Part shown: positions 1,042-35,397 of the stretch, one piece after another
How positions within the stretch are numbered: the first letter of the stretch is position 1
Layout: every line of letters begins with the position of its first letter
Source of the DNA: Nannocystis pusilla
Lineage (GTDB): Bacteria > Myxococcota_A > Polyangia > Nannocystales > Nannocystaceae
Length of the DNA: 35,397 nt
Direction: 5' to 3' (one strand)
Assembly (NCBI RefSeq): GCF_049337375.1
Contig: NZ_JBMPIV010000015.1
Program-made: the position numbers and the translations under genes
Notes under the pieces: model-generated
Told to the model about the DNA's origin: nothing
The model's input: the letters and a program-made list of their open reading frames with translations, nothing else
The model's database searches: none

Positions 1042-1821
1042 CTAGCCGCTGCAGGGGCCGCCCTGGGCGACCCAGCCGTCCTGGCCGCAGACGTAGTACT
1101 GAAAATTCTCGCCGCAGACCTGATGGCCGCATTCGGTCGCATACACGGTGTTGCCGAGGTAGTCCTTGCCGCCGGGGCAGTCGCAGCCGTCGTCGCCGCC
1201 GCAGACGCCGCCCTTGGCGACCCAGCCGTTCGGCTCGCAGGCGTAATACTGGAAGTCTTCGCCGCAGATCTGCTGGTCGCAGGCGGTCGCGTGCACGGGG
1301 TTGCCGAGGTTGTCAGTGCCGTCGGGGCAGTCGCATTCGTCGCCGTCGTCGTCGCCGTCGCCGCAGACGCCGCCCTGGGAGACCCAGCCGTTTTGCCCGC
1401 AGACGTAGTAATGGAAGTCCTCGCCGCAGACCTGGTGGCCGCATTCGGTGGCGTTCACGGTGTTGCCGAGGTAGTCCTTGCCGCCGGGACAATGGCAGCC
1501 GTCGTCGCCGCCGCAGACGCCGCCCTGGGCGACCCAGCCGTCCTGGCCGCAGACGTAGTACTGGAAGTCTTCGCCGCAGACCTGATAGCCGCAGACGTCG
1601 GTGTCCACGGGGTTGCCGAGGTGATCGGTGCCGCCGTCGCACGGACACCCGCCGCCGTCGCGCAGGTCGATCGCGGACGCGTCGGCGCGCGCGGCTGGCT
1701 GGTCGTCGCAGGCCAGCGGCGCGAGCACGGAGGCGCTCAGCAGCAGGGCGGCGCCGAGGCGCGAGGCGGAGAGGAGACGGCGCGAGAGCGAGGCGTGAGG
1801 GCGCGTGAAGGTGATGGACAT
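1042..1821 (-). CDS. secreted lipoprotein made of four tandem ~50-aa cysteine-rich repeats (CxCPGGKDYLGNTVxATECGHQVCGEDFQYYVCGQDGWVAQGGVCGGDDG)
   Basis: Signal peptide plus lipobox (LAPLAC); AAGGAA Shine-Dalgarno 7 nt upstream of ATG at 1819-1821; four near-identical repeats visible in the translation. Confidence 0.8.
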   Translation of the reverse strand: MSITFTRPHASLSRRLLSASRLGAALLLSASVLAPLACDDQPAARADASAIDLRDGGGCPCDGGTDHLGNPVDTDVCGYQVCGEDFQYYVCGQDGWVAQGGVCGGDDGCHCPGGKDYLGNTVNATECGHQVCGEDFHYYVCGQNGWVSQGGVCGDGDDDGDECDCPDGTDNLGNPVHATACDQQICGEDFQYYACEPNGWVAKGGVCGGDDGCDCPGGKDYLGNTVYATECGHQVCGENFQYYVCGQDGWVAQGGPCSG

Positions 1822-3420: not shown

Positions 3421-4179
3421 TCAGAAGCGGCCGGTGAGGCTGACGAGGGCGCCGCGCGGGGTGGGGCTCATGCCGGCGGAGAAGCGGCGGCCGCGATCGT
3501 TGCGGTGGAGCAGCGGGACGAGGACGCCGATGGCGGCGCCGGCGACGGAGCCGAACAGGACGTCGGTCCAGAAGTGCTTGCCGGCCTCGACGCGCAGGAC
3601 GCCGGTGGTGGCGCCGAGGCCGACTGCGAGCAGCCAGGCCGGGACGGCGGCGCGGGCCCGCGGGTGACGCAGGGTGAAGAGGGTGGCCCAGGCGCTCATC
3701 ATGGCGAAGGCGGTCGAGGTGTGACCTGAATAAAAGGACAGGCGCGCCTCCTCGGCCTGGACGTCGCCGAGCTCGCTCTCGGGCTCGTAGCTGTAGGGCC
3801 GCGGGCGGCGGACGGCGTACTTGACGAGGTTGTTGAGGCCGACGTTGACGGCGAGGACCTCGAACAGGACGACCACGTCGCGGGCCCAGCCGGCGGCGGC
3901 GTGACGGTAGGAGCCGGGGGCGCGGCGGCCGGCGAGGAGGGTGTCGGCGAGGTCGGCGACGATCGGAGCGGCGATCGCGGTGTAGAGCAGGGCGTCGGAG
4001 GCGTGGGCGGCCGCGAGGCTCTCGTTGCCGAGGACGCGCCGATCGAGGCCGTTGATGTGGCTGCGATCGCAGGCCTGACAGCCGGACCACCGTATGTCGC
4101 GGGCCGCGAGATCGGTGCCTAGCCACATGACGAGGCCGAGGGCGATGACGGGGACGTCGACGGCCGGCCGCAGGCGCAT
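3421..4179 (-). CDS. PAP2-family phosphatase (six-TM membrane phosphatase); the ORF can be extended 5' to 4551/4575, which would add a signal-peptide-like segment and a Pro-rich linker encoded by the repeat cluster
   Basis: PAP2 motifs KYAVRRPRP, YSGHTS and GKHFWTDV; six predicted TM helices begin at MRLRPAVDVPVIALGLV. Confidence 0.7.
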   Translation of the reverse strand: MRLRPAVDVPVIALGLVMWLGTDLAARDIRWSGCQACDRSHINGLDRRVLGNESLAAAHASDALLYTAIAAPIVADLADTLLAGRRAPGSYRHAAAGWARDVVVLFEVLAVNVGLNNLVKYAVRRPRPYSYEPESELGDVQAEEARLSFYSGHTSTAFAMMSAWATLFTLRHPRARAAVPAWLLAVGLGATTGVLRVEAGKHFWTDVLFGSVAGAAIGVLVPLLHRNDRGRRFSAGMSPTPRGALVSLTGRF

Positions 4180-4255
4180 GAGGTGCGGCGGGAGGGCCGG
4201 CGGCGCGAGCGGGAGCGGCGGATCGGCGGCAGGGGTCGTGCGGGCAGGCGGCGGA

Positions 4256-4450
4256 TATGTCCCTTGGGACATGTCTTCAGGGGCGTTCGACGAGGGCGTG
4301 GGCGGAGCCGGGTCGGATGTCCCTGGGGACAGGTTGTCGGGGGCGGCCGGATCGGCTGTCCCCGAGGATGTGCGGTCGAGAGGGGACGGCGGAACAGGTG
4401 AGGGTGTCCTCTCGGGCATGTCATCCGAGACATGTCCCGAGGGTCCGACC
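4256..4450. repeat. cluster of five copies of the palindromic repeat family (TGTCCCTTGGGACATGTC, TGTCCCTGGGGACAGGTTGTC, GCTGTCCCCGAGGATGTG, GGGTGTCCTCTCGGGCATGTCATCCGAGACATGTCCCGAGGGTCC) in the divergent PAP2/SUKH-gene intergenic region
   Basis: read directly from the sequence; a further half-copy TTTGGGGACAGGTG lies at 4605-4626. Confidence 0.8.
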
Positions 4451-4742
4451 AGCTGCCAGGCGTTCGGTCTGGAAGCGCGCGCCAGCGGGTGGGCGGCCGC
4501 GGGCGGGGCGGCGAGGGCGAGGACCAGGGCCAGAGACAGGCAGCGCGACATGCTCGGTCGGACGAGTATGCCCAATCGCAGGCCGGCGGCGCCGAGATCG
4601 GATGGCTTTGGGGACAGGTGAGTCGCGGGCTCGGCCGGAGGCGCGTCGATCGCGCTGTGTTGGCAGAGGACGTCCGGGTCGAGCCCGATGGACGCCCTGC
4701 TGGCAGAGGACCTCCGGGTCGGGCTACATTGGGCGTCCAGCG

Positions 4743-15000: not shown

Positions 15001-16134
15001 ATGCGATTGTCGACAGTGATCCTCGGTTGGTTGGCGCTATCCACGGTGCACACGATCGGTTGCGCGAAGGCGGCGGTCGCCAGTCCGGACGCGACGCCGC
15101 CGACCTCCGGCGGGCCGCAGATGGCCGTGCCGAAGGCGCCGCCGCCGAGAGGACCGGACGGGCCGATCACCGCGGCGGAGCGCGAGGAGGCGGTCGAGGC
15201 GCTGGCGCGCGAGCTGACGGCGAAGTACGTGTTCCCGGACAAGGCGAACGAGGTGGCCAGGGTGATCCGCGCCCGCCGCAAGCGCGGCGAGTACGACAAG
15301 ATCACGACGGGCCACGCGCTGGCGACGACGCTGACGAACGACATCAACGAGGTGCTGCGTGACGCGCACTTCCACGTCCGCTTCAGCAAGGAGACGCTGC
15401 CGCCGCAGCAGACCGAGGGGAAGCCGTCGGCCGAGGAGCTGGCCCGCTTCGAGGACTTCTCGCGCCGCATGAACGGAGGGTTCGAGAAGGTCGAGCGGCT
15501 GCCCGGCAACATCGGCTACCTGGAAGTCCGCGGGTTCGCCTTCCCCGGCCGCGGGTTCGAGGCGGCGTCGGCGGCGATGGCGTTCCTGGCGGAGACCGAC
15601 GCGCTGATCGTCGACCTCCGCCGCAACGGGGGCGGGTCGCCGGAGATGGTGGCGTACCTGTGCAGCTATCTGTTCGACGAGCGGGTCCACCTGAACGACC
15701 TGTACTTTCGGCCAGCCAACGAGACGCGCCAGTTCTGGACGGCGCCGGTGCCGGGCAAGTCCTACGTGGGCCGCGAGGTCTACGTGCTGACGAGCCCGCG
15801 CACCGGCTCGGCGGCGGAGGAGTTCGCGTACAACCTGAAGAACCTGGGGCGGGCGACGATCGTCGGCGAGGTGACGTGGGGCGGGGCAAACCCGGGCGAT
15901 ATGGTGCGCCTCGGCGACCACTTCAGGGCGTTCGTGCCGACGGGCCGGGCGATAAACCCGATCTCGAAGACGAACTGGGAGGGGGTGGGCGTGCAACCCG
16001 ACATCGCAGTGCCGGCCGAGGACGCGCTGCGGGTGGTCCAGGTCAAGCTGATCGAGCAGCAGATCGCCAAGGCGACGGACCCGGAGCTGAAGGCGGAGCT
16101 GGAGGAGCGGCTCCGCGAGCTGCAGCCGAAGTGA
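15001..16134 (+). CDS. S41-family (tail-specific/IRBP-type) peptidase lipoprotein
   Basis: AAGGAGGTGA Shine-Dalgarno before ATG 15001; lipobox HTIGCAK; motifs LIVDLRRNGGG and TGSAAEEFAYNLK. Confidence 0.85.
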   Translation: MRLSTVILGWLALSTVHTIGCAKAAVASPDATPPTSGGPQMAVPKAPPPRGPDGPITAAEREEAVEALARELTAKYVFPDKANEVARVIRARRKRGEYDKITTGHALATTLTNDINEVLRDAHFHVRFSKETLPPQQTEGKPSAEELARFEDFSRRMNGGFEKVERLPGNIGYLEVRGFAFPGRGFEAASAAMAFLAETDALIVDLRRNGGGSPEMVAYLCSYLFDERVHLNDLYFRPANETRQFWTAPVPGKSYVGREVYVLTSPRTGSAAEEFAYNLKNLGRATIVGEVTWGGANPGDMVRLGDHFRAFVPTGRAINPISKTNWEGVGVQPDIAVPAEDALRVVQVKLIEQQIAKATDPELKAELEERLRELQPK

Positions 16135-16148
16135 GGCGCGGCAGGGCG

Positions 16149-16388
16149 GGAGGACATGTCCGAGAGGACCTGTCTCGTGCGTGCGGAGGTCCGTGGGGAC
16201 ATGTCCTCTCGGACACTCCCGAGGGGACATGGCGGAGCGTCCGCGCGGCGCGCCCGTGCCGGCGCCGCGGGGAGGCGGTCTTTCGGGACATGTCCTTGCA
16301 GACATTTCCGCTGAGCTGGCGTCGGAGCGGCGCTCTCGTGGCCAGTTTTGTGTGTGGTGGTATTTGGGGACATGTCCTATCGGACGTG
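16149..16388. repeat. four repeat-family copies in the convergent intergenic gap between the S41 peptidase and SDR genes
   Basis: GGGAGGACATGTCCGAGAGGACCTGTCTCG; GGGGACATGTCCTCTCGGACACTCCCGAGGGGACATGGCGG; CGGGACATGTCCTTGCAGACATTTC; TTTTGTGTGTGGTGGTATTTGGGGACATGTCCTATCGGACGTGG. Confidence 0.85.
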
Positions 16389-18420: not shown

Positions 18421-20316
18421 CTAGGAGGCGGGGACGGGCTCGGCCCCGAGGTCGCGGGCGAGGTCGGCGAGCTCGCCGATCGGGACCTGCAGCGCGGGCA
18501 GACGGGTGATGTCGGCCCGCGCGGCCTGGGCGATCGACTCGCTGGCGCGCATGATGAGGCCGCCGTTGGCGTCGGCGACGACGGTGTAGCCGGCCTTGCG
18601 CAGGCGGGCGAGCCGGGCCTGGGCGGCGGGGGTGAGGTCGGTGGCGGTGATGCGCAGGGATGGCACGCGGCCGGGCCAGAGGGCGGCGAGGTAGGCGGTG
18701 ATCCGCGGCGGGTAGACGACGCCGCCGGCTGTCTTTTCGTTCAGGTGGACGTCGACCAGCGCGGGGTAGCCGTGCACGTCGCAGCGGACCGCCCCGTGCA
18801 AGTGGCTGGTCCACATCGCCTCGGGGCTGACGGGCGCGGGCCACAGGCGGTCGAACCACGCGGCGATGGCGTCGTAGCTGGGGAGGCGCTGGCCGCCGAG
18901 CGCGTCGCCCAGGCGCTGGACCTCGGCGCCGAACCGCTCGCCGCGCTCCTCCCGGCGCAGGCGCAGGAGGATGGCGAGGACGGCGATGGCGATGGCGGCG
19001 TACCACAGGCCGAACAGCAGCAGCCCGCCGCAGACGATGGCGGCGAACAGGAGGCCGAGGCCGCCGTCGCGGACCTGTTGCTGGCGCCGCTCGTCGGCGT
19101 GGCGCGCCAGGAGGGCGCGGCGAGCGACCGCGAGGGCGCTGGCGGGGATCCGGCCCTCCGGCTCGGGGCCGGCGAGGTCGGGGCGATCGGGGAGGAAGGA
19201 GCGGACGGCGGCGATCAGGTCCCGGGTCGCGGGCGAGGCGGGGCTGTCGGCGGGCTCGCGCACCGCGGCGACCACCAGCGGCGCCTCGGCCAGACCGCCG
19301 GGCGGGGCCGCCAGCCCCGCCGTGGCCGAGGGGGTGCTGAGGCTGGCGCCGGAGCGGTTGGAGAGGATCGCCAGGAGCGAGGAGTTCGACGGGCTCATCG
19401 CGGCGCCCGGGAGGGTGTCGCTGGCGGCCGTCCGCGCGGCCGGGTCGCGGGCGAGGCTGGCCCCGAGGCCAGGTGCCTGCTCGCGCGGGGCGGGCAAGGG
19501 GCCGGACAGCGCGGCGGGGTCGAAGCCGGGAGCGACCGCGGTGCGGAGGCCCGGCGCGGCGGGTGAGCTGTCTGCAGGGACAGGTGATGAGGAGGCGCGG
19601 AGGGCGGCGAGGTGGCTGTCCGAAGGGACAGATGATGGCCGGCTGTCCGTGGGGACAGGCGGGGATCGCGTGGCCGCGGGGTCGAGGTCATGGCTGTCCG
19701 TGGGGACAGGCGGCCGGTGGCTGTCCGCAAGGGCAGGTTGATGGAGGCTGTCCGCAAGGACAGGCGCATCGACGGGCAGGGACAGCTGGGCCGGCTCCGG
19801 CGCGGCGTCGTGCCCGTGGGCGGCCAGGCCCGCGGCCGGCTCGGCCGACAGGGGGCCGGGGCGGGCGTCGGCCCAGCGGCCGGGGCGGGGGCCCTGCAGG
19901 GTGTCGCCGGGCTCGGGGGCGGCGAGCGGAGCGTTGCTGTCTCTCAGGACAGGTCGCAGGGGAGCCGGGACGGCGGGCGGCGGGGCCGGGCCGATCGAGA
20001 GCAGGGTGGTCGGCGGGACGGGCGCGGCGAGCAGCCTGGCCGAGGGCCCGGGCTGGTGGCGCGCGTGGAGCCGCGGGCTCGGCGGCGGGGCCTTGGCGTC
20101 GGGTTCGGGGCTGACCTTCGGGACAGGTGCGCTGTGGACCAGGTCGCTGACGGCCTGCTGGATCGCCCGCTCGTAGAGGGCCAGAGCGTCGGCGACGGCC
20201 GGCGGCAAGCCGTGGGGCTGCCGGCAGGCGGGGCAGTCGGCGGCGTCGCGGAGGTCGGCGAGCGAGAGCGCGTGCTGGCAATGCGGGCAGCGCAACGCGA
20301 GCGTCGGAGAGAGCAC
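18421..20316 (-). CDS. membrane-anchored protein: N-terminal zinc ribbon (CPHCQ…CPAC), long Pro-rich linker containing a six-unit repeat array, one TM helix, C-terminal globular domain of unknown function; 5' end uncertain (GTG 20316 or TTG 20295; the ORF opens at 20754)
   Basis: C-terminal ~220 aa non-repetitive and protein-like (…FDRLWPAPVSPEAMWTSHLHGAVRCDVHGYPALVDVHLNEK…); 4-nt gap to the downstream gene suggests an operon. Confidence 0.5.
   Translation of the reverse strand: MLSPTLALRCPHCQHALSLADLRDAADCPACRQPHGLPPAVADALALYERAIQQAVSDLVHSAPVPKVSPEPDAKAPPPSPRLHARHQPGPSARLLAAPVPPTTLLSIGPAPPPAVPAPLRPVLRDSNAPLAAPEPGDTLQGPRPGRWADARPGPLSAEPAAGLAAHGHDAAPEPAQLSLPVDAPVLADSLHQPALADSHRPPVPTDSHDLDPAATRSPPVPTDSRPSSVPSDSHLAALRASSSPVPADSSPAAPGLRTAVAPGFDPAALSGPLPAPREQAPGLGASLARDPAARTAASDTLPGAAMSPSNSSLLAILSNRSGASLSTPSATAGLAAPPGGLAEAPLVVAAVREPADSPASPATRDLIAAVRSFLPDRPDLAGPEPEGRIPASALAVARRALLARHADERRQQQVRDGGLGLLFAAIVCGGLLLFGLWYAAIAIAVLAILLRLRREERGERFGAEVQRLGDALGGQRLPSYDAIAAWFDRLWPAPVSPEAMWTSHLHGAVRCDVHGYPALVDVHLNEKTAGGVVYPPRITAYLAALWPGRVPSLRITATDLTPAAQARLARLRKAGYTVVADANGGLIMRASESIAQAARADITRLPALQVPIGELADLARDLGAEPVPAS
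19568..19770. repeat. array of six GCTGTCCGNNGGGACAGG(T/C)G units with irregular 27-51 bp spacing, encoding PVPTDS(H/R)-type peptide repeats in the linker of the 18421..20316 protein; more copies at 19935-19955 and 20108-20140
   Basis: read directly from the sequence. Confidence 0.8.
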
Positions 20317-23404: not shown

Positions 23405-23429
23405 GCCCCTGTTCTCCGCGACAGGTCGA

Positions 23430-23459
23430 GAGTGACATGTCCCCGGGGACATGTCACTC
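23430..23459. repeat. perfect 30-bp palindrome GAGTGACATGTCCCC|GGGGACATGTCACTC built from the repeat core, filling the convergent gap between the M16 gene and the next gene
   Basis: reverse complement equals itself, checked base by base. Confidence 0.9.
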
Positions 23460-23897: not shown

Positions 23898-24163
23898 GCG
23901 GCGAGTCTGGCACGCCGCGGGGGCGCTGTCACGGCGCCAGCGTGGCCAAGAGGACATGTTGGATAGAACATGGCGAAAGGGTCATGTTCGATGCGACGCG
24001 CGAGGTCGGCGTGGACCGTGGAGGGTGCCGGCCCTGCTGGCAGGCTGCGCCGAGCGCTGCCTGCTCGTCGAGGGCGCGGGTCGATGGGACGAGGGGGGCA
24101 TGGCTCCTCCGCGACCGGCGACGGAGTCCGGCGTGGACGTCTGATCTTTAAAATAAGCTGTCC

Positions 24164-25147: not shown

Positions 25148-25228
25148 GAAGACTGTCCGAAGGGACAGGTGGTCGTGGCGAGCCGGTCGGTCGAGGCGAG
25201 AAGACTGTCTGAAGGGACAGGTGGCGGC
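25148..25228. repeat. two direct copies (54-bp period) of GAGAAGACTGTC(C/T)GAAGGGACAGGTGG filling the convergent gap between the PDZ lipoprotein and XRE genes
   Basis: read directly from the sequence. Confidence 0.85.
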
Positions 25229-25963: not shown

Positions 25964-26210
25964 TGAGTGGCGAGAACGTGGCGGAACGCCTGGCCTGCAG
26001 GCGCTGGCGTCGATCAGCAGCGATGCGCGTGGACGCGCGGGCGCCGGAGCGTTGTGGCGGGGACCACACGGATCTGCTCCAGGTTCTGGGTGGGCGAAGT
26101 CGCGCAAGGTCGATCCCCGCAGGCGATCAAGCCGTTCGCGTCGGGACGAGTCGCGCCACGAAGGCGCTCGCGCGCCCGGGTGAGGCTGGGCGTCGGCCTC
26201 GCGTGTCTGC

Positions 26211-26332
26211 GAGGACATGCGCGCGAGGACATGCGCGCGAGGACATGCGCGCCAGGGCATGCGCGAGGACATGCGCGCGAGGACATGCGCGCGAGGACAT
26301 GCGCGCGAGGACATGTCCGAGAGGACATGCCC
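26211..26332. repeat. microsatellite-like tandem array, about nine units of GAGGACATGCGCGC (14 bp), ending in GAGGACATGTCCGAGAGGACATGCCC. An expansion of the repeat-family half-site
   Basis: read directly from the sequence; lies just 3' of the stop at 26347. Confidence 0.9.
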
Positions 26333-26346
26333 TCGGAGCCAGCGGC

Positions 26347-28128
26347 TCAGGCGGCGGAGGCGACGCCGAGGGTGCGGGCGAGGGCGCGGGCGACCGCGAG
26401 GGGGCGGCCCTTGAACACGCGGACGTACGGGATGGCGCTGGCCCGGGCGGCGCGGGCGAGGATCCCGTCGATGTTGTGGGCCTGGAAGCCGGTGGCGATG
26501 AGCACGTAGTCGTAGCTGTGGCGCGAGATGCTCTCGCACTGGGCCTGGACCTTGCGGGCGTTGCCGTCGCACCAGGTGATGTCGAGGCCGAGCGACTCCT
26601 CGAGCTTCGACTTGAGGTCGGGGTCCTCGCGGTTGCTGACGAACAGGACCCGCTTGCCCTCGACCTTGGGCCGGACCTGGGCGACCAGGTGCGCGCCCGG
26701 ATCGTCGACGTCGTCGGTCTCTTCCTCGAGGTCGCTGTCGCTGTCGGACGGCAGCACGCCGAGCTCGCCGCGCTTGATCACGTCCTGCAGGCCGGTGAGG
26801 CGGCGACGCATGCGGCGGTCCTCGAACAGGTCGGGGCGCAGGGCGTCGATGCGCGGGCGGATCGGCTGGACCAGCGACGCGACCTCGGGCGTGTTGTGGG
26901 CGTCGAAGGCCCGGCCGAGGAAGGCGAGCAGGGCCTCGTCGTCGAAGCTGTCGGCGGCGACCAGGGCGTCGCGTTCGGCTCGCACCGCCGCTTGCTGCTG
27001 GCGGACCTGATCGGCCGAGGGCCCGGTCTTGGCGCGCTCGGGCGGCGGGATGAACTCGGGGTCGAGCCAGCGGCGCAGCTGCGGCAGGCGCTCGCCGAGG
27101 CGCCCCGCGAGCCAGCGCAGGCGGCCCATGACGGCGCCCCAGGTCTCGGGGTCCTCGGCGGCGATGAAGCGACGGATGTCGCGCAGCGCCTGGGCGTGCT
27201 TGACGAGCGCGTCGAGCTGCTCGTTCGGCAGCTCCTCCGGCGGCGTGGTCAGGTGGCGCGGCGGCGGGTCGGTGACGTTGCCGGCGATGGCCTCGACGGC
27301 GCGCTGGGCCTCGCGCAGGAGGGCGCGCGGCTGGCCCGGCGGGGCCTTGCGCGGGCGGTCGGCCCAGCCGTAGTCGTCGACCGGGACCTCGCTGGTCATC
27401 GCGCGCTCGCGATGGTTCTGCACGAACTCGTGCGCCTCGGCCCAGGTCTTCGGCGCGTGCAGCGTCTTCAGCCCGAGCTCGGTGACCACGCACGCGGGCA
27501 CCGCGTTCATCTGCAGCGCCTGCACCGAGCCGGGCCACAAGGTCTTGCTGAGGTTCGTCAGCTCGTGGGCGATCCGCCGCACCAGCACGGTGATCTTGTG
27601 CTCGCCCTGGAACTGCTCGTCGAAGCTGCGCGCGCGGGAGATCCACGCCAGCATGTAGACCTTCTGATAGCGCGGCGACATCAGCGCGAAGTCGGGCCGC
27701 ATGTCCTGGATGTCCTTGAGGATCTCTTCCAGGGTCTCACGCGCCTCGGCGACCGCAGCAGCGGGATAAGTCGGTAGCTGGATCCGGCCGACGATCGGGC
27801 TGCGCGGTAGCTCGGGCTGCTCGGGCGCGGCGGGCGGGGCGGTGGGGATAACTTCGGGGGATACTGCGGCGCTGGGTGGCGCCGCCTGCGGACGGGCTGG
27901 CTCCTGGAGGCCGTCGCGGAAGCGATCGAAGAGTTGACGCGCGGCCGCCGACGGAAACATCTGCGTCAGCGCATCTTCGAGGGCGCTGTCACGATCGGGT
28001 CCGCGGCCGAGCCACCGCTCCGTGTCGCGCCAGATCAGCACCTCGGTCCACTGATGGGTATACATCGCGTGGCGGTAGCCGCTGTCCGCGAGAAACTTGG
28101 GTAGCCAGCGCGCGCCGTCGTCGTGCAT
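26347..28128 (-). CDS. hypothetical protein (593 aa); acidic linker and conserved-looking C-terminal domain
   Basis: long non-repetitive ORF with typical codon usage; lies 180 bp downstream of FabG on the same strand. Confidence 0.55.
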   Translation of the reverse strand: MHDDGARWLPKFLADSGYRHAMYTHQWTEVLIWRDTERWLGRGPDRDSALEDALTQMFPSAAARQLFDRFRDGLQEPARPQAAPPSAAVSPEVIPTAPPAAPEQPELPRSPIVGRIQLPTYPAAAVAEARETLEEILKDIQDMRPDFALMSPRYQKVYMLAWISRARSFDEQFQGEHKITVLVRRIAHELTNLSKTLWPGSVQALQMNAVPACVVTELGLKTLHAPKTWAEAHEFVQNHRERAMTSEVPVDDYGWADRPRKAPPGQPRALLREAQRAVEAIAGNVTDPPPRHLTTPPEELPNEQLDALVKHAQALRDIRRFIAAEDPETWGAVMGRLRWLAGRLGERLPQLRRWLDPEFIPPPERAKTGPSADQVRQQQAAVRAERDALVAADSFDDEALLAFLGRAFDAHNTPEVASLVQPIRPRIDALRPDLFEDRRMRRRLTGLQDVIKRGELGVLPSDSDSDLEEETDDVDDPGAHLVAQVRPKVEGKRVLFVSNREDPDLKSKLEESLGLDITWCDGNARKVQAQCESISRHSYDYVLIATGFQAHNIDGILARAARASAIPYVRVFKGRPLAVARALARTLGVASAA

Positions 28129-28309: not shown

Positions 28310-29089
28310 TCAGGTGCCGATGACGGAGCCGCCGTCGACGCTCAAGATGGCGCCGTTGATGAAGCTCGACTTGTCGTCGGCCAGGAAGAGATAGGCGCGA
28401 GCGATGTCGTCGGGCTGTCCGGCGCGGCCGACCGGGGTGTGCTCGATCAGCGCGTTATAAACCTTCTCGGGGATGCTCTTGACCATGTCCGTGGCGATGA
28501 AGCCCGGGGCGACGGCGTTCGCCGTGATGCCGTAACGGCCGAGCTCGCGCGCCCATACGCGCGTCATGCCGACGACGCCGGCCTTGGCGGCGACGTAGTT
28601 GGTCTGGCCGAAGTTGCCGTACAACGCGACCACCGAGCTGGTGCTGACGATCCGCCCGTACTTCTGGGCGATCATCGTCGGCACGACCGCCTGGGTGCAG
28701 TTGAACACGCCCTTGAGGCAGACATCGAGGACGAACTGGAACTGGTCGGCGCTCATCTGACCGACCACCTGTCCGTCCTTGACCTTGACGAGCTGGCCGT
28801 CGCGGACGACGCCGGCGTTGTTGATGAGGACGTCGATCCGGCCGAAGCGCTCGAGCACGGCGGCGACCCCGGCGACGCAGTCCTCGGGCTTGCTGACGTC
28901 GACCTTGCGAGCGATGGCGACGCCGCCGGCGGCGGTGATCGCGGACACGACCTCCTCGGCTGCCTGTTCGGCCAGGTCCCACACGGCCACGCCGTAGCCG
29001 GCCTCGGCGAACTTGAGAGCGGTGGCGCGGCCGATGCCGTTGCCGCCGCCGGTGACGATGGCGATCCGCGGTTGCTGGGTGCTTGTCAT
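28310..29089 (-). CDS. fabG: 3-oxoacyl-ACP reductase (FabG-like SDR)
   Basis: IAIVTGGGNGIGRA; NNAG; S…YVAAKAGVVG; start at M131 of ORF 28310..29479. Confidence 0.85.
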   Translation of the reverse strand: MTSTQQPRIAIVTGGGNGIGRATALKFAEAGYGVAVWDLAEQAAEEVVSAITAAGGVAIARKVDVSKPEDCVAGVAAVLERFGRIDVLINNAGVVRDGQLVKVKDGQVVGQMSADQFQFVLDVCLKGVFNCTQAVVPTMIAQKYGRIVSTSSVVALYGNFGQTNYVAAKAGVVGMTRVWARELGRYGITANAVAPGFIATDMVKSIPEKVYNALIEHTPVGRAGQPDDIARAYLFLADDKSSFINGAILSVDGGSVIGT

Positions 29090-29257
29090 GCGGCGGCGAG
29101 CGTACCGAGGGCCGCCGAGGTCGCCTGCACCAAGAGCCAGGGTGAGATGTGAGCTTGCGCCCTGTCGGTGACCGCAGCGCGCGGCTCGGGCGTCCACGGA
29201 GGATGATGGCCGCCGCTTGTCGTCTCCAGGGCGATCCCCGTAGGATGCGCCGACCCC

Positions 29258-29545
29258 ATGACAGAGACCGCGCCGCCCGAAGCCCTGGTCCGCGAGATCA
29301 AGGAGCTCATCATCGAGGCCCTGATGCTGCAGGACATGACCCCCGAGGACATCGACCCGGAGGCGCCGCTTCTGGTCGAGGGGCTGGGCCTCGACTCGAT
29401 CGACGTGCTCGAGCTGGCGATGGCCATCGGCAAGAAGTACGGCGTCAAGACCCGCGCCGACGACGCCCAGAACCGACACATCTTCGCCAGCGTGACCAAC
29501 CTGGCCCGCTTCGTCGCCGAACAGCGCGCGCCGGCGGCGAGCTGA
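29258..29545 (+). CDS. acyl carrier protein
   Basis: GLDSID phosphopantetheine-attachment motif; 95 aa. Confidence 0.85.
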   Translation: MTETAPPEALVREIKELIIEALMLQDMTPEDIDPEAPLLVEGLGLDSIDVLELAMAIGKKYGVKTRADDAQNRHIFASVTNLARFVAEQRAPAAS

Positions 29546-29553
29546 GGCCCGAC

Positions 29554-30204
29554 ATGGCGGACCCGAACGGCGAGCCGCGGCGAGCCGCGGGGGTCCCCAG
29601 GTGGGTGCCCGCGGTGCTGCGGTCGGTGGTGATCGGCGGCTATCCGCTGGTCGTGTACCTCGGCATGACGCGCTGGAGCCCGCGCACCCTGGCGCTGGTG
29701 CTGGCGGTGGCGCTGCTCCCGGGGCTTCTGCTGCGCCTGCGCGAGGCCCGGCGCGAGGACCTGTGGCCGGTGCTGCGGGTGCCGCTGTCGCTGTTCGGGC
29801 TGTTCGCGGCGGCGGCGCTGTCGGGCGAGCAGCGGCTGTTCATGGCCCTGCCGGTGCTGGTCAACCTGGGCCTCTTGGCCAACTTCGCCGCCAGCCTGCG
29901 CGGGCCGGTGTCGCTGGTCGAACGGTTCGCACGCCTGCAGGAGCCCGACCTGCCGCCCGGCGGGCCGGCGTACTGCCGCACCTGGACCAAGATCTGGTGC
30001 GGTTTCTTCGTCGCCAACGCGGCCGTCAGCGCCGGCCTGGCGCTGTGGGCCCCGGTGGCCTGGTGGACGCTCTACACCGGACTTTTGGCCTACCTGCTGA
30101 TCGGGGTAATGTTCACCGTCGAGTTCGTCGTCCGCAAGGCGACCTTCCGTCGCTTCGGCGACGGGCTGCCCGACCGCCTGCTCCGCCGACTGCTCCGCGC
30201 ATGA
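29554..30204 (+). CDS. integral membrane protein of the lipid cluster
   Basis: multiple TM helices; stop overlaps the next start (ATGA at 30201-30204). Confidence 0.65.
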   Translation: MADPNGEPRRAAGVPRWVPAVLRSVVIGGYPLVVYLGMTRWSPRTLALVLAVALLPGLLLRLREARREDLWPVLRVPLSLFGLFAAAALSGEQRLFMALPVLVNLGLLANFAASLRGPVSLVERFARLQEPDLPPGGPAYCRTWTKIWCGFFVANAAVSAGLALWAPVAWWTLYTGLLAYLLIGVMFTVEFVVRKATFRRFGDGLPDRLLRRLLRA

Positions 30205-32255
30205 AGTCGTTCGCCCCGCTCGTCCACACCGATCCCGCGGCGCTCGTCGCCGTGGGCGAGGCCGGCGCGCGCACGGCCGGCGAGCTCATGCGCGACGCGA
30301 GGGCCGTCGCGGCGCGGCTGCCGGCGCCGATGCCGGGGAGCGAGGTGCTGGTGGTGTGCGGCGACCGCTACCACCTGGCGGTGACGACCCTGGCGGCGTG
30401 GCTGCGCGGCCACGCGGTCGCGCTGCCGCCCAACGCCCAGCCGGCGGCCGTGCGCGAGCTGGCCGGGCGGCCGTCGGTGGTCGCGCTGCTGCACGACTCC
30501 GACCTGGCCGACGCGCAGGACGTCCGCGAGTGGCTGGAAGGACATGTTTCAGGGGACATGGCCGATCCGACATGGCCCGAAGCGCTGGCGCCCGATCGCC
30601 GGCTGGCGGTCGTGTACACCTCGGGCAGCACCGGCGATCACCAGCCGTGCGCCAAGACGGCCGCGCAGCTGCTCGGCGAGGCGCAGGCGCTGGCGGCCAC
30701 GTTCGCCCTGCGGGCCGGCGAGGTGGCGCTGGCGACGGTGCCGCCGTACCACCTCTACGGGCTGCTGTTCGGGATCCTGGCGCCGCTGGCTGCGGGGGCG
30801 GCGTTCGCCCGCGAGACGCCGCTGCACGCCGAGACGGTGGCCCGGGCGGCGCGGCAGGTGGAGGCGACGGTGCTGGTCAGCACGCCGGCGCACCTGCGCG
30901 GGCTGACGGTGCTGACGCGCGGCGACCTGCCGCCGCTGTCGCGGGTGTTCTCGTCGGGCGCGCCGCTGCCGCGGGCCACCGCCGACGAGCTGCTGACCAA
31001 GCTGGGCCTGCAGGTGACCGAGGTGTACGGCTCGTCGGAGACCGGCGGGATCGGCTGGCGGCGGCACGAGGATGTTTTAAAAGACATGTCCCCGGAGCCA
31101 GCCTGGACGCCGCTGCCGGGAGTGACGGTCGAGGTGGCGGCCGAGGGGCGGCTGCTGCTGCGCTCGCCGTTCTTGGCCCCGGACGCGCCGGTGCCGTACC
31201 CGTGCGAGGATCGCGTCGAGGTCGACGCGCGCGGCGGGTTCCACCTGCGCGGGCGGCTCGACGGGGTGGTGAAGATCGCCGGCAAGCGGGTGGCGGTGGC
31301 CGAGGTCGAGCAGCGCCTGCTGGCGCTGGCGGCGGTGGCCGACGCCGCGGTGGTGGCGGTCGAGTCGCCGGGCGCGCGCGGGCACGAGCTGGTGGCCGCC
31401 GTGGTGGCGCGCGAGGCCGGGCGCGACGCCGCCGAGCTGGTGGCCGAGCTGCGGCGGGCGCTGCTGCCGTGGTTCGACCCGGTGGTGGTGCCGCGGCGGA
31501 TCAAGGTGGTGCCGGCGCTGCCGCGCGAGCCGAGCGGCAAGCTGACGCGGCGCAAGCTGCACGCGCTGCTCGGGCTCGCGGGCGAGGAGGAGAGTGCGTC
31601 GGGTGGCGCGAAGGACATGTCTGTGAGGACAGATGCCGACGCAGCGAGCGCGGGTCCGAGGCTCGGTGGCGCGAGGGACATGTCCGCGGGGACAGAGGCC
31701 GCACCAGAGCGCGGTGGCGCGAGGGACATGTCCGCGGGGACAGAGGCCGCACCGGAGCGAGGTGGCGCGAGGGACATGTCCGCGGGGACAGATGCCGATC
31801 CGGAGCGCGGTGGCGCGAGGGACATGTCCGCGGGGACAGAGGCCCATGGGGCGTCGTGGGGTGTCTCGCGAGACATGTCCGCGGGGACAGGTGGCGCGTC
31901 GGCGTTCGCGCTGGGCGGCCACGCGCGGCGCGACGAGGGCGGGGCGGCGGTGCACGAGGTCGAGGTGGGGGTGCCGGTCGACCTTGCGTTCTTCTGCGGG
32001 CACTTCGACGCGCTGCCGGTGCTGCCGGGGGTGGCGCAGCTGACCGCGCTGGTGGTGCCGCAAGTGGCGGCGCTGCGGCCGGAGCTGGGGCCGCTGAGGC
32101 GGGCGGCGCGGCTGAAGTTCACCCGGCCGATCGCGCCGGGCGACGCGCTGGTGCTGCGGCTCGAGGTCCGCGGGACTCAGGTCCGCTTCTCGTTGGCGCG
32201 GGCCGGCGAGGTGGTCACGGCGGGGGCGCTCGAGTACGAGGCGCGCGGAGGCTGA
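30201..32255 (+). CDS. AMP-dependent synthetase/ligase fused through a 5.5 x 16-aa repeat linker to a FabA/FabZ-like hotdog dehydratase domain
   Basis: YTSGSTG and GSSETGG AMP-binding motifs; FFCGHFDALPVLPGVAQL matches the hotdog dehydratase active-site motif; the true ATG at 30201 overlaps the upstream stop. Confidence 0.8.
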   Translation: MKSFAPLVHTDPAALVAVGEAGARTAGELMRDARAVAARLPAPMPGSEVLVVCGDRYHLAVTTLAAWLRGHAVALPPNAQPAAVRELAGRPSVVALLHDSDLADAQDVREWLEGHVSGDMADPTWPEALAPDRRLAVVYTSGSTGDHQPCAKTAAQLLGEAQALAATFALRAGEVALATVPPYHLYGLLFGILAPLAAGAAFARETPLHAETVARAARQVEATVLVSTPAHLRGLTVLTRGDLPPLSRVFSSGAPLPRATADELLTKLGLQVTEVYGSSETGGIGWRRHEDVLKDMSPEPAWTPLPGVTVEVAAEGRLLLRSPFLAPDAPVPYPCEDRVEVDARGGFHLRGRLDGVVKIAGKRVAVAEVEQRLLALAAVADAAVVAVESPGARGHELVAAVVAREAGRDAAELVAELRRALLPWFDPVVVPRRIKVVPALPREPSGKLTRRKLHALLGLAGEEESASGGAKDMSVRTDADAASAGPRLGGARDMSAGTEAAPERGGARDMSAGTEAAPERGGARDMSAGTDADPERGGARDMSAGTEAHGASWGVSRDMSAGTGGASAFALGGHARRDEGGAAVHEVEVGVPVDLAFFCGHFDALPVLPGVAQLTALVVPQVAALRPELGPLRRAARLKFTRPIAPGDALVLRLEVRGTQVRFSLARAGEVVTAGALEYEARGG
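30537..30584. repeat. repeat-family copy (GAAGGACATGTTTCAGGGGACATGGCCGATCCGACATGGCCCGAAGCG) in-frame in the ligase, encoding EGHVSGDMADPTWPEA just before the YTSGSTG motif; a second copy at 31071-31099 encodes DVLKDMSPEP
   Basis: atypical codons (gtt tca, aca, gaa, tta aaa). Confidence 0.7.
31603..31905. repeat. tandem array of about 5.5 units of 48 bp, each GGTGGCGCGAGGGACATGTCCGCGGGGACAGAGGCCGCACC(A/G)GAGCG(C/A), encoding (ERGGARDMSAGTEAAP)n between the ligase and dehydratase domains
   Basis: read directly from the sequence; not CRISPR-like because the units have no unique spacers. Confidence 0.9.
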
Positions 32256-32269
32256 GGCGGTGCGTATGG

Positions 32270-32403
32270 CCGAAGGGGCAGGTCGTTGCCAGATGTCCGG
32301 GAGGACAGGTCGTCCGCCGACGGTCGGCGGGCGGGGTGCGCCCCGCGGCGGGAGGCGGGCATGAGCGCGGACGGAGGCCAGGATGTGTCCCGAGGGACAG
32401 GTG
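32270..32403. repeat. repeat copies in the ligase/GT2 intergenic region and in the first 15 codons of GT2 (CCGAAGGGGCAGGTCGTTGCCAGATGTCCGGGAGGACAGGTCGTCC; GGATGTGTCCCGAGGGACAGGTG)
   Basis: read directly from the sequence. Confidence 0.75.
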
Positions 32404-33176
32404 AAGCCGGGGCCGCGGCGTTCCGGCCGTGCGCGCTGATCCCGACCTTCGACAACCCGCGGACGGTGCGGGACGTGGTGCTGCGGGTCAAGGCGCACCT
32501 GCCCGACGTGGTGGTCATCGACGACGGCTCGGGGCCGGAGGGCCGCGCCGCGGTCGAGGCGCTCGGGGCGGAGGGGCTGGCGCACGTGCGGCGACGGCCG
32601 CACAACGGCGGCAAGGGGGCGGCGGTCAAGACCGGGTTCCAGTTCGCCCACGAGCTCGGCTACACCCACGCGCTGCAGGTCGACGCCGACGGGCAACATG
32701 ACCTGGGGGACATCCCGCAATTCCTCGCCACCGCGCGCGAGCGGCCGGACGCGCTCGTCCTCGGGGCGCCGGTGTACGACGCGTCGGCGCCCAAGGGGCG
32801 GCTCGTCGCCCGCAAGATCACGCTGTTCTGGACCAACTTCGAGGCGGGGCGCGGGGTCATCACCGACCCGATGTGCGGCTTCCGCGTGTACCCGCTGGCG
32901 CCCGCGCTGGCGCTCGGGCGCACCGGCGACCGCATGGACTTCGACATCGAGATCGCGGTCCGCCTGGTGTGGGCGGGGGTGCCGGTGATCAACCTGCCGA
33001 CCAAGGTCCGCTACATCGGCCGCGACGAGGGCGGAGTGTCGCACTTCCGCGTGTTCGGCGACAACGTCAAGATCTCGTGGCTGCACACCCGGCTGTCGTT
33101 CCAGCGGGTGATGGTGCGCCCGTGGGTCAACCTCTACCGCCGCCTGCGCCGCCCGGCGCTGCCGGCCGGCCGCTGA
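32361..33176 (+). CDS. family-2 glycosyltransferase (polyprenyl-phosphate sugar transferase-like)
   Basis: GGGAGG Shine-Dalgarno 6 nt before ATG 32361; …ALIPTFDNPRTV…VVVIDDGSGPEG…QVDADGQHD motifs. Confidence 0.8.
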   Translation: MSADGGQDVSRGTGEAGAAAFRPCALIPTFDNPRTVRDVVLRVKAHLPDVVVIDDGSGPEGRAAVEALGAEGLAHVRRRPHNGGKGAAVKTGFQFAHELGYTHALQVDADGQHDLGDIPQFLATARERPDALVLGAPVYDASAPKGRLVARKITLFWTNFEAGRGVITDPMCGFRVYPLAPALALGRTGDRMDFDIEIAVRLVWAGVPVINLPTKVRYIGRDEGGVSHFRVFGDNVKISWLHTRLSFQRVMVRPWVNLYRRLRRPALPAGR

Positions 33177-33186
33177 GGGGCTGCGC

Positions 33187-33252
33187 GAGAGGACAGGTTC
33201 GATCGGCCATGGCTCATCAGGCAGGTGCGGGGGGACATGTCCCGGAGGACAA
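33187..33252. repeat. repeat copy (GAGAGGACAGGTTCGATCGGCCATGGCTCATCAGGCAGGTGCGGGGGGACATGTCCCGGAGGACAACC) between the GT2 and acyltransferase genes
   Basis: read directly from the sequence. Confidence 0.75.
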
Positions 33253-33263
33253 CCGGGCCGGGG

Positions 33264-33435
33264 CCGCGGCGGGCGAGCGCGGGGCGGGCGTGCCGGCGAC
33301 CGCCGCCGGGCAGGGGAGCGAGCGCGAGGCGGGCGGCGCCGCGGCGGGCGAGCGCGGGGCGGGCGTGCCGGCGACCACCGCGGGGCAGGGGAGCGAGCGC
33401 GAGGCGGGCGGCGCCGCGGCGGTCGAGGGCGACCG
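33264..33435. repeat. 75-bp tandem duplication (2.3 units) encoding (AAAGERGAGVPATAAGQGSEREAGG)n upstream of, or inside a 5' extension of, the acyltransferase gene
   Basis: read directly from the sequence. Confidence 0.85.
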
Positions 33436-33442
33436 GGCGTGG

Positions 33443-34321
33443 ATGACCCGGCCCGAGCGCGGGACGGTGCTCGGGATCAAGGCGACGCTGCTGTTCTGCC
33501 GGGTGTTCGGCCGCCGCGGGGCGGGGGTGCTGCTGGCGGTGATCACCTTCTACTACGCGCTGTTCGCCGGGGCGGCGCGGCGGGCCTCGCAGGACTACCT
33601 GCGGCGGATCGGCCAGCCGCACGGTTTCTGGGCCAGCTGGCGCCACATCTACACGTTCGCCCGCTGCGCCCTCGACCGCGTGTTCCTGGTCCGCGGCGAG
33701 ACGTCGCGGTTCCGCATCACGCACACGGGCATCGAGCACCTGCGGGCGCTGCAGCAGCAGGGCAAGGGGGCGCTGCTGCTCGGGGCGCACCTCGGCTCGT
33801 TCGAGGCGATGCGGGCCAGCAGCGCCGACAAGCGGCTGCCGATCCACATCCTCGCGTACTGGCAGAACGCGAAGATGATAAGCGACTTCTTGCGCACGGT
33901 GCAGGCCGACTTCGACGTGCGCGTGATCCCGATCGACCCGCGCGACACCAGCTACATCCTGGCCGCCAAGGAGGCGATCGAGCGCGGGGAGCTGGTGGCG
34001 GTGCTCGGCGACCGGGTCGGGGTCAACGAGAAGACCTGCACGGCCGAGTTCCTGGGCGCTCCGGCGCGCTTCCCGACCGGGCCCTACACCCTGGCGGCGC
34101 TGCTAAAGTGCCCGATCTATTTGACTTTCGGGCTTTATCACGGGCCCGACCGCTACGATCTGTATTGCGAGCCCTTCGCCGAACAATTAGAACTCCCCAG
34201 AGGCCGCCGCGAGGCCGCCACCGCCGCCCATGTCCAGCGCTACGCCGAACGCCTCGAGCACTACTGCCGCCTCGCGCCGCTCAACTGGTTCAACTTCTAC
34301 GAGTTCTGGAGGGCGGAGTGA
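33443..34321 (+). CDS. LpxL/HtrB-like (lysophospholipid/lipid A-type) acyltransferase; an alternative upstream start at 33209 would include the repeat-encoded extension
   Basis: family-like pattern RPERGTVLGIKATLLF…ALLLGAHLGSFE…AVLGDR; the stop TGA overlaps the GTG start of the next gene (GTGA). Confidence 0.7.
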   Translation: MTRPERGTVLGIKATLLFCRVFGRRGAGVLLAVITFYYALFAGAARRASQDYLRRIGQPHGFWASWRHIYTFARCALDRVFLVRGETSRFRITHTGIEHLRALQQQGKGALLLGAHLGSFEAMRASSADKRLPIHILAYWQNAKMISDFLRTVQADFDVRVIPIDPRDTSYILAAKEAIERGELVAVLGDRVGVNEKTCTAEFLGAPARFPTGPYTLAALLKCPIYLTFGLYHGPDRYDLYCEPFAEQLELPRGRREAATAAHVQRYAERLEHYCRLAPLNWFNFYEFWRAE

Positions 34322-35397
34322 GTAGCGCGCGCGTCCTCATCGTGGGGCCCGGGGGCATCGGCCTCGACGACGTGGTTCAGCTGGCCGAAGGGACAGCTTT
34401 CCCGGCGCTCGACGACGCCCCGGAGTACCGGGCGCTGCTGGGCCGCGGCGCCGACCACCTGGCGCGCCGGCTGGCCGCGGGCGAGGTCGTCTACGGGGTC
34501 ACGACCGGGTTCGGCGACTCGTGCGAGACGTCGGTGCCCGACGAGCACGTGGCGGCGATGCCGATCAACCTGATGCGCTTCCACGGCTGCGGCACCGGGC
34601 GGATCCTCGACGAGGTCGAGGCGGCCGCGGTGGTGGCGGTGCGGCTGGTGGCGCTGGCGCGCGGCTGGTCGGGCGTGCGCGTCGAGGTGCTCGAGCGCCT
34701 GTGCGACCTGCTGCGGCACCGCCTGCTGCCGCGGATCCCCGCCGAGGGCTCGGTCGGGGCCAGCGGCGATCTGACGCCGCTGTCGTACGTGGTGGCGGCG
34801 CTGGTCGGCGAGCGCGAGGTCTGGTTCAAGGGACAGGTCGCGCCCGCGGCCAAGGCGCTGCGCGAGGCCGGGATCCCGCCGCTCGTGCTGCAGCCCAAGG
34901 AGAGCCTGGCGCTGATGAACGGGACCAGCGTCATGGTCGGGCTCGGTTGCCTGGCGGTCGCGCGCGCGCAGCGGCTGGCGCGCCTGTGCGCGGCGCTGAC
35001 GGCGATGGGCAGCGACGTCCTCGGCGGCAACCCCGCTCACTTCGACGACCGCATCTTCGCCGCCAAGCCGCACCCGGGCCAGAGGGCCGTGGCGGGGTGG
35101 ATCCGCGAGGATATCGAGTTCCCGCGGCCGGCCGCCCCCGCCCGCATCCAGGACCGCTACTCGATCCGCTGCGCCCCCCACGTGATCGGCGTCCTCGTCG
35201 ACGCGCTACCCTGGGTCCGGCAGTGGCTGGAGGTCGAGATCGTCGGCGCCAACGACAACCCGCTGGTCGACCCGGAGACCGGCGAGGTGCTGCACGGCGG
35301 CAACTTCTACGGCGGCCACGCCTGCTTCGCGCTCGACTCGCTCAAGACGGCGGTGGCAAACCTCGCCGACCTGGTCGACCGCCAGATCGCGCTGGTC
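34318..35397 (+). CDS. aromatic amino acid ammonia-lyase (HAL/TAL/PAL, MIO-dependent), 5' part only; continues past the window end
   Basis: GVTTGFGDS…; MIO-forming GSVGASGDLTPLS (Ala-Ser-Gly at 34759-34767); absent from the ORF track because it has no stop within the window. Confidence 0.8.
   Translation, partial: MSSARVLIVGPGGIGLDDVVQLAEGTAFPALDDAPEYRALLGRGADHLARRLAAGEVVYGVTTGFGDSCETSVPDEHVAAMPINLMRFHGCGTGRILDEVEAAAVVAVRLVALARGWSGVRVEVLERLCDLLRHRLLPRIPAEGSVGASGDLTPLSYVVAALVGEREVWFKGQVAPAAKALREAGIPPLVLQPKESLALMNGTSVMVGLGCLAVARAQRLARLCAALTAMGSDVLGGNPAHFDDRIFAAKPHPGQRAVAGWIREDIEFPRPAAPARIQDRYSIRCAPHVIGVLVDALPWVRQWLEVEIVGANDNPLVDPETGEVLHGGNFYGGHACFALDSLKTAVANLADLVDRQIALV

Follow-up and report, generated by a model that had tools for sequence, protein, structure and literature searches.

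An in-frame array of a short palindrome in the disordered linker of a Nannocystis pusilla hypothetical protein, compared with REP-type and Rickettsia palindromic elements

Several kinds of short, iterated sequence have been described in bacterial genomes. The cyanobacterial HIP1 (highly iterated palindrome 1) is an octameric palindrome, a contiguous 8-mer without a loop, which is found about once per kb in both coding and non-coding DNA and whose primary function is unknown; to our knowledge, it is not concentrated at the 3' ends of genes and is not known to form in-frame arrays encoding peptide repeats. The DNA uptake sequences of Neisseria have 10-12 nt, also occur at about 1 per kb, are often arranged as inverted pairs that give a terminator-like hairpin after genes, and are tolerated in coding DNA. 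Repetitive extragenic palindromic (REP) sequences, bacterial interspersed mosaic elements (BIMEs) and REPINs (REP doublets forming hairpins), present in Enterobacteria and Pseudomonas, are mobilised by REP-associated tyrosine transposases (RAYTs). Rickettsia palindromic elements (RPEs) are in-frame palindromic repeats located within protein-coding genes, to which they add a peptide segment while leaving the protein intact (PMC10969869). Here, we analysed a stretch of 35,397 nucleotides of Nannocystis pusilla DNA (contig NZ_JBMPIV010000015.1, hereafter the window), in which the minus-strand gene 18421-20316 contains an array of a short palindrome with the consensus R-S-[A/C]TGTCC-N4-GGACA[G/T]-G-Y (~16-22 nt).

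We consider it probable that this array consists of in-frame, translated copies of a short, REP-like and apparently undescribed palindrome, which is hyper-abundant in Nannocystis, tolerated in disordered linkers and tandemly expanded there. The element is nearest to REPs in its distribution and nearest to RPEs in its in-frame residence, and it fails the defining features of both. In literature searches aimed at it, we found no account of a palindromic repeat of Nannocystis or of myxobacteria, nor of GGACATGTCC, the sequence matches being mostly papers on p53.

The array and its host gene

The host gene has a GTG start at 20316 and a stop at 18421, and codes for a 631-aa product that is 100 % identical to an annotated N. 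pusilla hypothetical protein with the same start. A repeat search identified six 18-nt copies of GCTGTCCGNNGGGACAGG, starting at 19567, 19615, 19642, 19693, 19720 and 19747, which constitute an in-frame array of hairpins at 19567..19764 (minus strand, aa 185-250), as well as two more copies of the same type, at 19936 and 20110, plus a weak one at 19456. A sequence-only reading of this DNA had already placed a six-unit array here, which turns out to be far beyond chance, and the additional single copies that it listed at 19935-19955 and 20108-20140 correspond to those at 19936 and 20110. The spacing given in that reading (27, 27, 27, 47 and 51) is close to the true one except for its order and for a value of 47 instead of 48: the start-to-start distances are 48, 27, 51, 27 and 27 nt, followed by 189 and 174 nt, all of them divisible by three.

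The core of the repeat is the palindrome CTGTCC-N4-GGACAG, with a 6-bp stem and a 4-nt loop. On the mRNA strand each unit reads CCT GTC CNN NNG GAC AGC, which is translated as P-V-(P/L)-x-D-S, and the array, single and degenerate copies all share one reading frame of the gene. The array copies encode PVLADSL, PALADSH, PVPTDSH, PVPTDSR, SVPSDSH and PVPADSS, among which are the PVPTDSH, PVPTDSR, VPSDSH and PVPADS peptides reported earlier, and the outlying copies encode PVLRDSN and PVPKVSP. The first of the two single copies (19936..19953, minus strand, PVLRDS, aa 122) is kept at the orthologous position in six genomes, and the second (20110..20127, minus strand, PVPKVS, aa 64), with one mismatch in an arm, in five. 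The degenerate copy CTGGCC-N4-GGCCAG (19456..19473, minus strand, PGLGAS, aa 282) carries complementary changes in both arms and is invariant in the orthologues, with CCT as its first codon. The sequences between the copies are mutually related (63-84 % identity), with a period of 27 nt according to Tandem Repeats Finder. Perfect copies are predicted to fold as RNA hairpins of 6 bp and 4 nt (-8 to -13.5 kcal/mol), and the predicted fold of the whole array region has a z value of -3.5.

The host protein is composed of an N-terminal zinc ribbon (CxxC...CxxC; CPHC...CPAC) with a helix (aa 6-62), a disordered Pro/Ala/Ser-rich linker of ~335 residues (aa 63-398), a helical transmembrane region (~aa 417-451) and, at aa 505-625, a conserved alpha/beta C-domain. 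In the AlphaFold2 model, the protein is ordered at aa 6-62 and ~400-625, whereas aa 63-398, which include the array, have pLDDT values below 50 and no secondary structure. Searches of the host protein against Pfam and NCBIfam retrieved no family, and a Foldseek comparison of the model with the PDB gave no fold match at E <=0.001. Fifteen relatives were identified, all Nannocystis-like, of which 12 were aligned, the frameshifted P0007 and two fragments being left out. The aligned proteins share a near-invariant N-terminus (MLSPTLALRCPHCQ...CPAC..HGLP...ALYERAIQQ), followed by a variable linker, a hydrophobic segment and a conserved C-domain. The architecture of zinc ribbon, linker and transmembrane region proposed from the sequence is thus borne out by orthologues and model; as to its conservation, the zinc-ribbon/membrane/C-domain plan is kept, whereas the linker is variable and contains all the indels. 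Synteny is also kept, with a divergent M16 peptidase gene upstream and genes for a small hypothetical protein, an SDR (short-chain dehydrogenase/reductase) and an S41 peptidase downstream.

In DNA alignments of the window gene with each of five good orthologues, indels are found exclusively within nt 211-916, that is, in the linker, and each is divisible by three or, in the repetitive part, belongs to a pair summing to such a value; six good orthologues have zero stop codons. In a window with a GC content of ~73 %, GC at third codon positions (GC3) along the host ORF is 0.86-1.0 with a GC pattern over the codon positions typical of coding DNA; it drops to 0.72-0.84 in the array and is 0.9-1.0 on both sides of it. 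Judged by orthologues and GC3, the predicted host gene is real, its start lies upstream of the array and the array is translated.

The linker of P0007 reads in another frame (LSPRTA), which we first took as a sign that the peptide is dispensable; this was dropped as a probable assembly error, because in the same assembly the neighbouring M16 and S41 genes are split as well and the alignment has 1-nt gaps. The N. pusilla locus L124 (GCA_049060185.1, 1-7860), from an assembly with long contigs, has a host-gene linker that is read out of frame (LSPRTA...), split genes for the M16 and S41 peptidases and a longer SDR gene (353 aa vs 254); its single-base alignment gaps suggest indel errors of the assembly.

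The motif in the window and across Nannocystis

The palindrome is not confined to the host gene. The window contains 36 copies of the core at <=2 mismatches (1.94 expected; 0/100 shuffles reach 36) and 38 of TGTCC-N4-GGACA at <=1 mismatch (1.12 expected); the over-represented 7-mers include GGACATG (28 vs 2.4 expected), GACATGT (20 vs 0.9) and GACAGGT (16 vs 1.7). From 283 copies collected, 190 oriented perfect copies were used to derive a position matrix, in which positions more than ~3 nt outside the 16-nt core carry information at background level on either side, with a weak R-S before the core and G-Y after it. Orthologous copies likewise keep the arms while the flanks diverge. In the orthologues of the host gene, the phase of the copies is constant and their number and unit length vary between species: at <=1 mismatch the window gene and that of a second N. 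pusilla have 8 copies each, those of ILAH1 and N. exedens 6 each, and that of N. bainbridge, with a period of 21 nt, has 9, while a metagenomic relative has 6 copies elsewhere in the linker.

One genome per species, from 185,579 species, was scanned for doublets, defined as two motif copies 7-37 nt apart. Among the matches listed, 64 of the 120 stretches belong to Nannocystis (N. pusilla, N. exedens, N. radixulma, N. punicea, N. bainbridge, RBIL2 and metagenome-assembled genomes), and the non-Nannocystis ones are mostly isolated doublets, with 2-3 copies per 8-kb locus and two loci that hold more. The 64 listed 8-kb Nannocystis loci, which owe their place to a doublet, and the window together make up 542 kb of DNA with 543 copies. 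The density is 3.25/kb in non-coding-like and 0.50/kb in coding-like DNA as delimited here, a ~6.5-fold difference. The spacing between neighbouring copies is divisible by three in 60/70 coding-like pairs, against 67/145 non-coding-like pairs, and in coding-like DNA the frames are used unequally (PVPxDS 114, LSxxT 89 and CPxGQ 17 times). In-frame arrays are also present in other Nannocystis ORFs, some of more than 2,600 codons.

The position of intergenic copies relative to genes is uneven. In two loci with recorded gene calls (L001 and L002) and in the window, with the gene map of this analysis, convergent (3'/3') spacers contain 6.5-11.7 copies/kb and divergent spacers 0-0.7/kb, and in tandem spacers 7/8 copies are closer to the stop of the upstream gene. 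The only copy with a T-rich tail is that at 25153-25168 (minus strand), and a scan with a terminator consensus retrieved 5 terminator-like sites vs 3.2 expected; since the hairpins are mostly devoid of a T tract, they are not canonical intrinsic terminators.

Three groups of intergenic copies between convergent gene ends were identified in the window. The copies at 23409..23459, between the stop of the M16 gene (23404) and that of a minus-strand gene (23469), include the perfect 30-nt palindrome GAGTGACATGTCCCCGGGGACATGTCACTC at 23430-23459 (predicted -23.4 kcal/mol, z = -4.8); in the orthologous ILAH1 spacer (L001, 6825-6882) the arms of this palindrome are kept and the loop is different. The motif scan placed two further copies (AGAAGACTGTCYGAAGGGACAGGTGG) at 25153..25220 and a cluster of five at 16156..16387, the latter between stops at 16134 and 16424. 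An AT-rich island, tctttaaaataag, at 24140-24160 adjoins the motif copy at 24158, and TTTAAAA is among the top over-represented 7-mers.

Two window genes other than the host contain the motif read in another frame (DMSxGT). A second in-frame array, composed of ~5 copies of GGGACATGTCCGCGGGGACAG with a 48-nt period, is located at 31602..31890 (plus strand) in gene 30201-32255; it encodes GGARDMSAGTEAAPER repeats in the linker (aa 472-563) that separates an AMP-binding_C domain, which ends at aa 447, from an ApeI/FabA-like hotdog domain, which begins at aa 590. The ILAH1 orthologue has 621 aa vs 684 aa here, a length difference that suggests copy-number variation in this array. In ORF 3421-4575, three in-frame copies at 4257..4419 (minus strand; EDMSQGT, DNLSPGT and DDMPERT, with spacing of 60 and 87 nt) are situated in the linker from the signal peptide to the PAP2 domain, and the N. 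exedens PAP2 homologue (L002, 16201-17451) has three copies at the same position, 126 and 129 nt apart. The copies at 32385 (GTG) and 4272 (ATG) begin exactly at candidate start codons (GTGTCC... and ATGTCC..., Met-Ser): the former would open the glycosyltransferase family 2 (GT2) gene 32385-33176, and for the PAP2 gene the longer ORF with the signal peptide seems more likely than a start at 4272.

Gene 30201-32255 belongs to a region (28310-35397) with predicted genes for SDR/KR (ketoreductase), an acyl carrier protein (ACP), a 216-aa protein without a Pfam match, the AMP-ligase fused to an ApeI-like dehydratase, the GT2 glycosyltransferase, a lipid A-type acyltransferase and an aromatic amino acid ammonia-lyase, and this predicted gene set resembles an aryl-polyene/flexirubin-type pigment cluster. 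Two other tandem repeats were observed in the window: one of 75 nt at 33254-33431 (plus strand, 2.4 copies, 94 % match), within the lipid-A-acyltransferase-like gene 33209-34321, in its N-terminal part and upstream of the Pfam domain, and one of 150 nt at 1045-1636 (minus strand, 3.9 copies with 79 % match; a period of 312 nt was scored as well), in gene 1042-1821, whose Cys-rich product has weak RING-like matches. The 150-nt repeat is unrelated to the hairpin motif.

Comparison with described elements

The Nannocystis motif resembles REPs, BIMEs and REPINs in being a short, hairpin-capable palindrome, present in very many copies and lineage-specific, and in its extragenic concentration just after genes, notably convergent ones, as single or clustered copies. 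Nevertheless, its core has 16-22 nt instead of the ~20-40 nt of REPs, in-frame arrays in coding regions are frequent here and atypical of REPs, and the arrays are mostly direct, not inverted doublets as in REPINs. No REP-type GTAG-like 5' tetranucleotide is fixed in the matrix of 190 copies, and no RAYT (Y1 HUH transposase) was found in the 29 window genes nor, by a weak regular-expression screen, in ~600 kb of sampled DNA. The properties shown by miniature inverted-repeat transposable elements (50-500 bp, terminal inverted repeats and target-site duplications) are likewise not those of the motif, as its information ends ~3 nt beyond the core.

The likeness to RPEs lies in the in-frame presence of the motif in three functionally unrelated genes of the window and in many large ORFs of other Nannocystis loci. 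However, RPEs are single insertions of ~100-150 bp that encode a conserved peptide of tens of residues, whereas the unit described here has 16-22 nt and 6-7 residues, its tandem arrays are confined to disordered linkers, most of its genomic copies are intergenic, and the genomes have a GC content of 73-78 %. The motif may also be compared with HIP1, being likewise a very short palindrome of one lineage that occurs at ~1/kb in coding and non-coding DNA, although HIP1 is a loopless 8-mer and the Nannocystis motif is looped and concentrated at 3' ends. A similar analogy could be drawn with the Neisseria uptake sequences, of unrelated sequence, in density, inverted arrangement after genes and tolerance in coding DNA. 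The array shares with coding variable-number tandem repeats a copy number that varies between close strains, units divisible by three and location in a disordered region, but ordinary repeats of this type are private to one gene, whereas the core observed here is a genome-wide non-coding element that is present in unrelated genes and in different frames. A search of the whole window with Rfam gathering scores gave 0 matches to any family.

Growth of the array, rival explanations and significance

Adjacent copies of the array have loops in common (TTGC/TTGC 27 nt apart and CCAC/CCAC 51 nt apart), and the window gene differs from that of ILAH1 by one 27-nt unit. The shared loops, the related spacers and this difference between strains therefore point to local tandem duplication and deletion, with retention of in-frame products. 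Amplification of an element within a linker, as the sequence-only reading had proposed, is supported by the annotated start, the in-frame indels confined to the linker, the species-variable number of copies and the dispersal of the motif.

Genome-wide, the motif behaves as a REP-type sequence, at roughly 1 per kb, enriched in non-coding DNA and almost exclusively just 3' of stop codons, above all convergent ones, and we propose that inside genes it persists where the peptide is harmless, namely in disordered linkers and in the frames PVPxDS or (L/M)SxxT, the cysteine frame CPxGQ being rare. Two or three copies in the 335-residue linker are old and common to the orthologues, and the central block would have repeatedly grown and shrunk by tandem duplication or deletion, with hairpin units of 27 and 51 nt here and of 21 nt in N. 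bainbridge, presumably by slipped-strand or unequal-recombination events. The frame would be kept by selection, because the upstream zinc ribbon and the downstream membrane and C-terminal domains must share one polypeptide. The first copies may have arisen by insertion or by mutation towards the motif. Intergenic copies may act as 3'-end stem-loops, in protection of mRNA ends or in termination, or as targets of sequence-specific proteins, and intragenic copies are probably near-neutral passengers that chiefly modulate linker length.

Some observations weigh against this explanation. The absolute densities are inflated, because the 64 Nannocystis loci were selected by doublet content, and outside the annotated loci the division into coding and non-coding DNA is a GC3 log-odds segmentation made in this analysis. 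There is no transposase among the 29 predicted window genes, and a motif screen of the ~600 kb of sampled Nannocystis DNA, a weak negative, retrieved no HUH...YxxNP ORF. The element is devoid of conserved flanks and target-site duplications, so that copy-and-paste mobility is unproven and a protein-binding site may instead have been selected convergently. Compensatory double changes in the arms are more frequent than expected (29 vs 8.8), but both the GC-rich background and the occurrence of non-compensatory doubles confound this excess. In addition, ~nine direct 14-nt repeats of GAGGACATGCGCGC at 26209-26330, in the spacer that follows the minus-strand gene 26347-27960 on its downstream side, consist of the motif half-site (GGACATG) without its inverted partner, a form that suits the half-site of a binding protein better than it does a hairpin. 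Given this half-site array and the constant 4-nt length of the spacer, the motif may serve a sequence-specific protein and not hairpin formation.

These last points are also the ones that favour a different explanation, according to which the motif would be the binding site of a dimeric DNA- or RNA-binding protein, with a nucleoid, segregation, uptake, methylation or regulatory role, and the intragenic arrays would be kept as useful sites. The sequence itself is conserved beyond complementarity, covariation supports the hairpin weakly, and operator-like palindrome doublets are found in other phyla. Among the matches listed, isolated GTGTCC-N4-GGACAC doublets were observed in Gemmatimonadota (L021, L027, L040, L057, L075, L098, L113 and L123) and isolated GACATGTCC-N4-GGACATGTC doublets in Kribbella (L039 and L088), and both look like paired operator sites of a putative regulator. 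Still, a density of ~1 site per kb, with the sites concentrated after stop codons and hardly any in divergent (promoter) spacers, is not regulator-like, and no candidate binding protein was identified in our analysis, so that we regard this explanation as rather unlikely, although it is the strongest of the rivals.

We attach a lower probability to a tandem repeat maintained at the protein level, in which PVPxDS would be a selected short linear motif, with a function in binding or modification or as a spacer module, and the palindromy of the DNA a by-product. Many large Nannocystis proteins do have recurrent PVPxDS-type repeats in their linkers, the peptide is of a kind typical for Pro-rich disordered spacers, and the two single copies are kept at orthologous positions. 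The choice of codons argues otherwise, as CCT makes up 3.6 % of the proline codons in 17 other window genes, whereas in the host gene 10/10 CCT codons lie within motif copies, eight of them being the first codon of CCT GTC CNN NNG GAC AGC or of its degenerate variants, and the serine of the copies is AGC every time. The N. bainbridge copies include ATGTCC and GGACAT variants, with the peptide HVPADIS or PVPADIS; radical replacements (P->H and S->I) thus follow the A/C and G/T alternatives of the DNA motif. Furthermore, other linkers, such as those with DMSxGT and those of the paralogue-like proteins P0017 and P0018, which contain LSPGT and LSSGT, use a different frame of the same DNA, and the majority of copies are non-coding and at 3' ends. 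On this comparison of codons and frames, the repeat unit is best described as a DNA-level element and not as a selected peptide.

The sequence-only reading also suggested that the 5' 60 % of the ORF might be non-coding. The array would then be an intergenic or 5'-UTR (untranslated region) cluster before a shorter gene for the membrane and C-terminal domains. The GC3 dip within the array would agree with this suggestion, similar arrays may sit upstream of genes, as with a QueG-like ORF in L058, and a profile search of 1.84 billion representatives retrieved just 35 relatives, mostly with the transmembrane and C-terminal part alone in common. Orthologues, however, do not start downstream of the array, and the shorter gene is refuted because they keep the zinc-ribbon N-terminus, near-invariant over its 62 residues, and the upstream start identical to the annotated one, with in-frame indels, zero stops and high GC3 on either side; the remote homologue P0023, from a low-GC organism, also has zinc ribbon, membrane region and C-domain, without the long linker. 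This alternative is therefore very improbable. A degenerate or miniature array akin to clustered regularly interspaced short palindromic repeats (CRISPR), which the short, palindromic and regularly spaced repeats bring to mind, can be dismissed, as the sequence-only reading had already done, because the conserved unit of 16-18 nt (<=22 nt with flanks) is shorter than CRISPR repeats (~23-55 nt), the cores are separated by 11-35 nt of related sequence (63-84 % identical) instead of by unique spacers of ~26-72 nt, the array lies within a conserved ORF with no cas gene or Cas domain among the 29 predicted window genes, and the motif is dispersed genome-wide as single copies, with no Rfam match.

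The annotation of the locus is thereby settled: the long ORF is a genuine gene with its start upstream of the repeat, which is neither a CRISPR nor a leader. Beyond what had been noticed earlier, the repeat proves to be a hairpin palindrome, distributed genus-wide and mainly at the 3' ends of genes, with in-frame copies in two more genes of the window. It also calls for caution in annotation, since such repeats lower GC3, give rise to long alternative ORFs on both strands and, in a long-read assembly, are found together with frameshift errors.

More tentatively, and with somewhat less than even confidence, we suggest that a genus-specific, REP-like micro-palindrome may mark gene 3' ends in ~ten thousand copies per 12-Mb genome (a number extrapolated from ~0.7-1 copy/kb) and also routinely seed and expand in coding DNA, acting as a proteome-wide generator of disordered linker repeats (PVPxDS and DMSxGT), possibly with a dedicated sequence-specific enzyme or binding protein behind it. 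If so, a selfish or regulatory DNA motif would directly shape the length and composition of linkers, namely those of membrane proteins, those following signal peptides and those of multidomain biosynthetic enzymes. The motif joins REP-like placement at 3' ends with RPE-like in-frame residence in proteins, and, if confirmed genome-wide, it would offer a system for studying the spread of short palindromes where a limited search found no mobilising transposase, the conversion of non-coding motifs into protein sequence, and the evolution of linker length in large myxobacterial proteins, possibly including polyketide and non-ribosomal peptide megasynthases.

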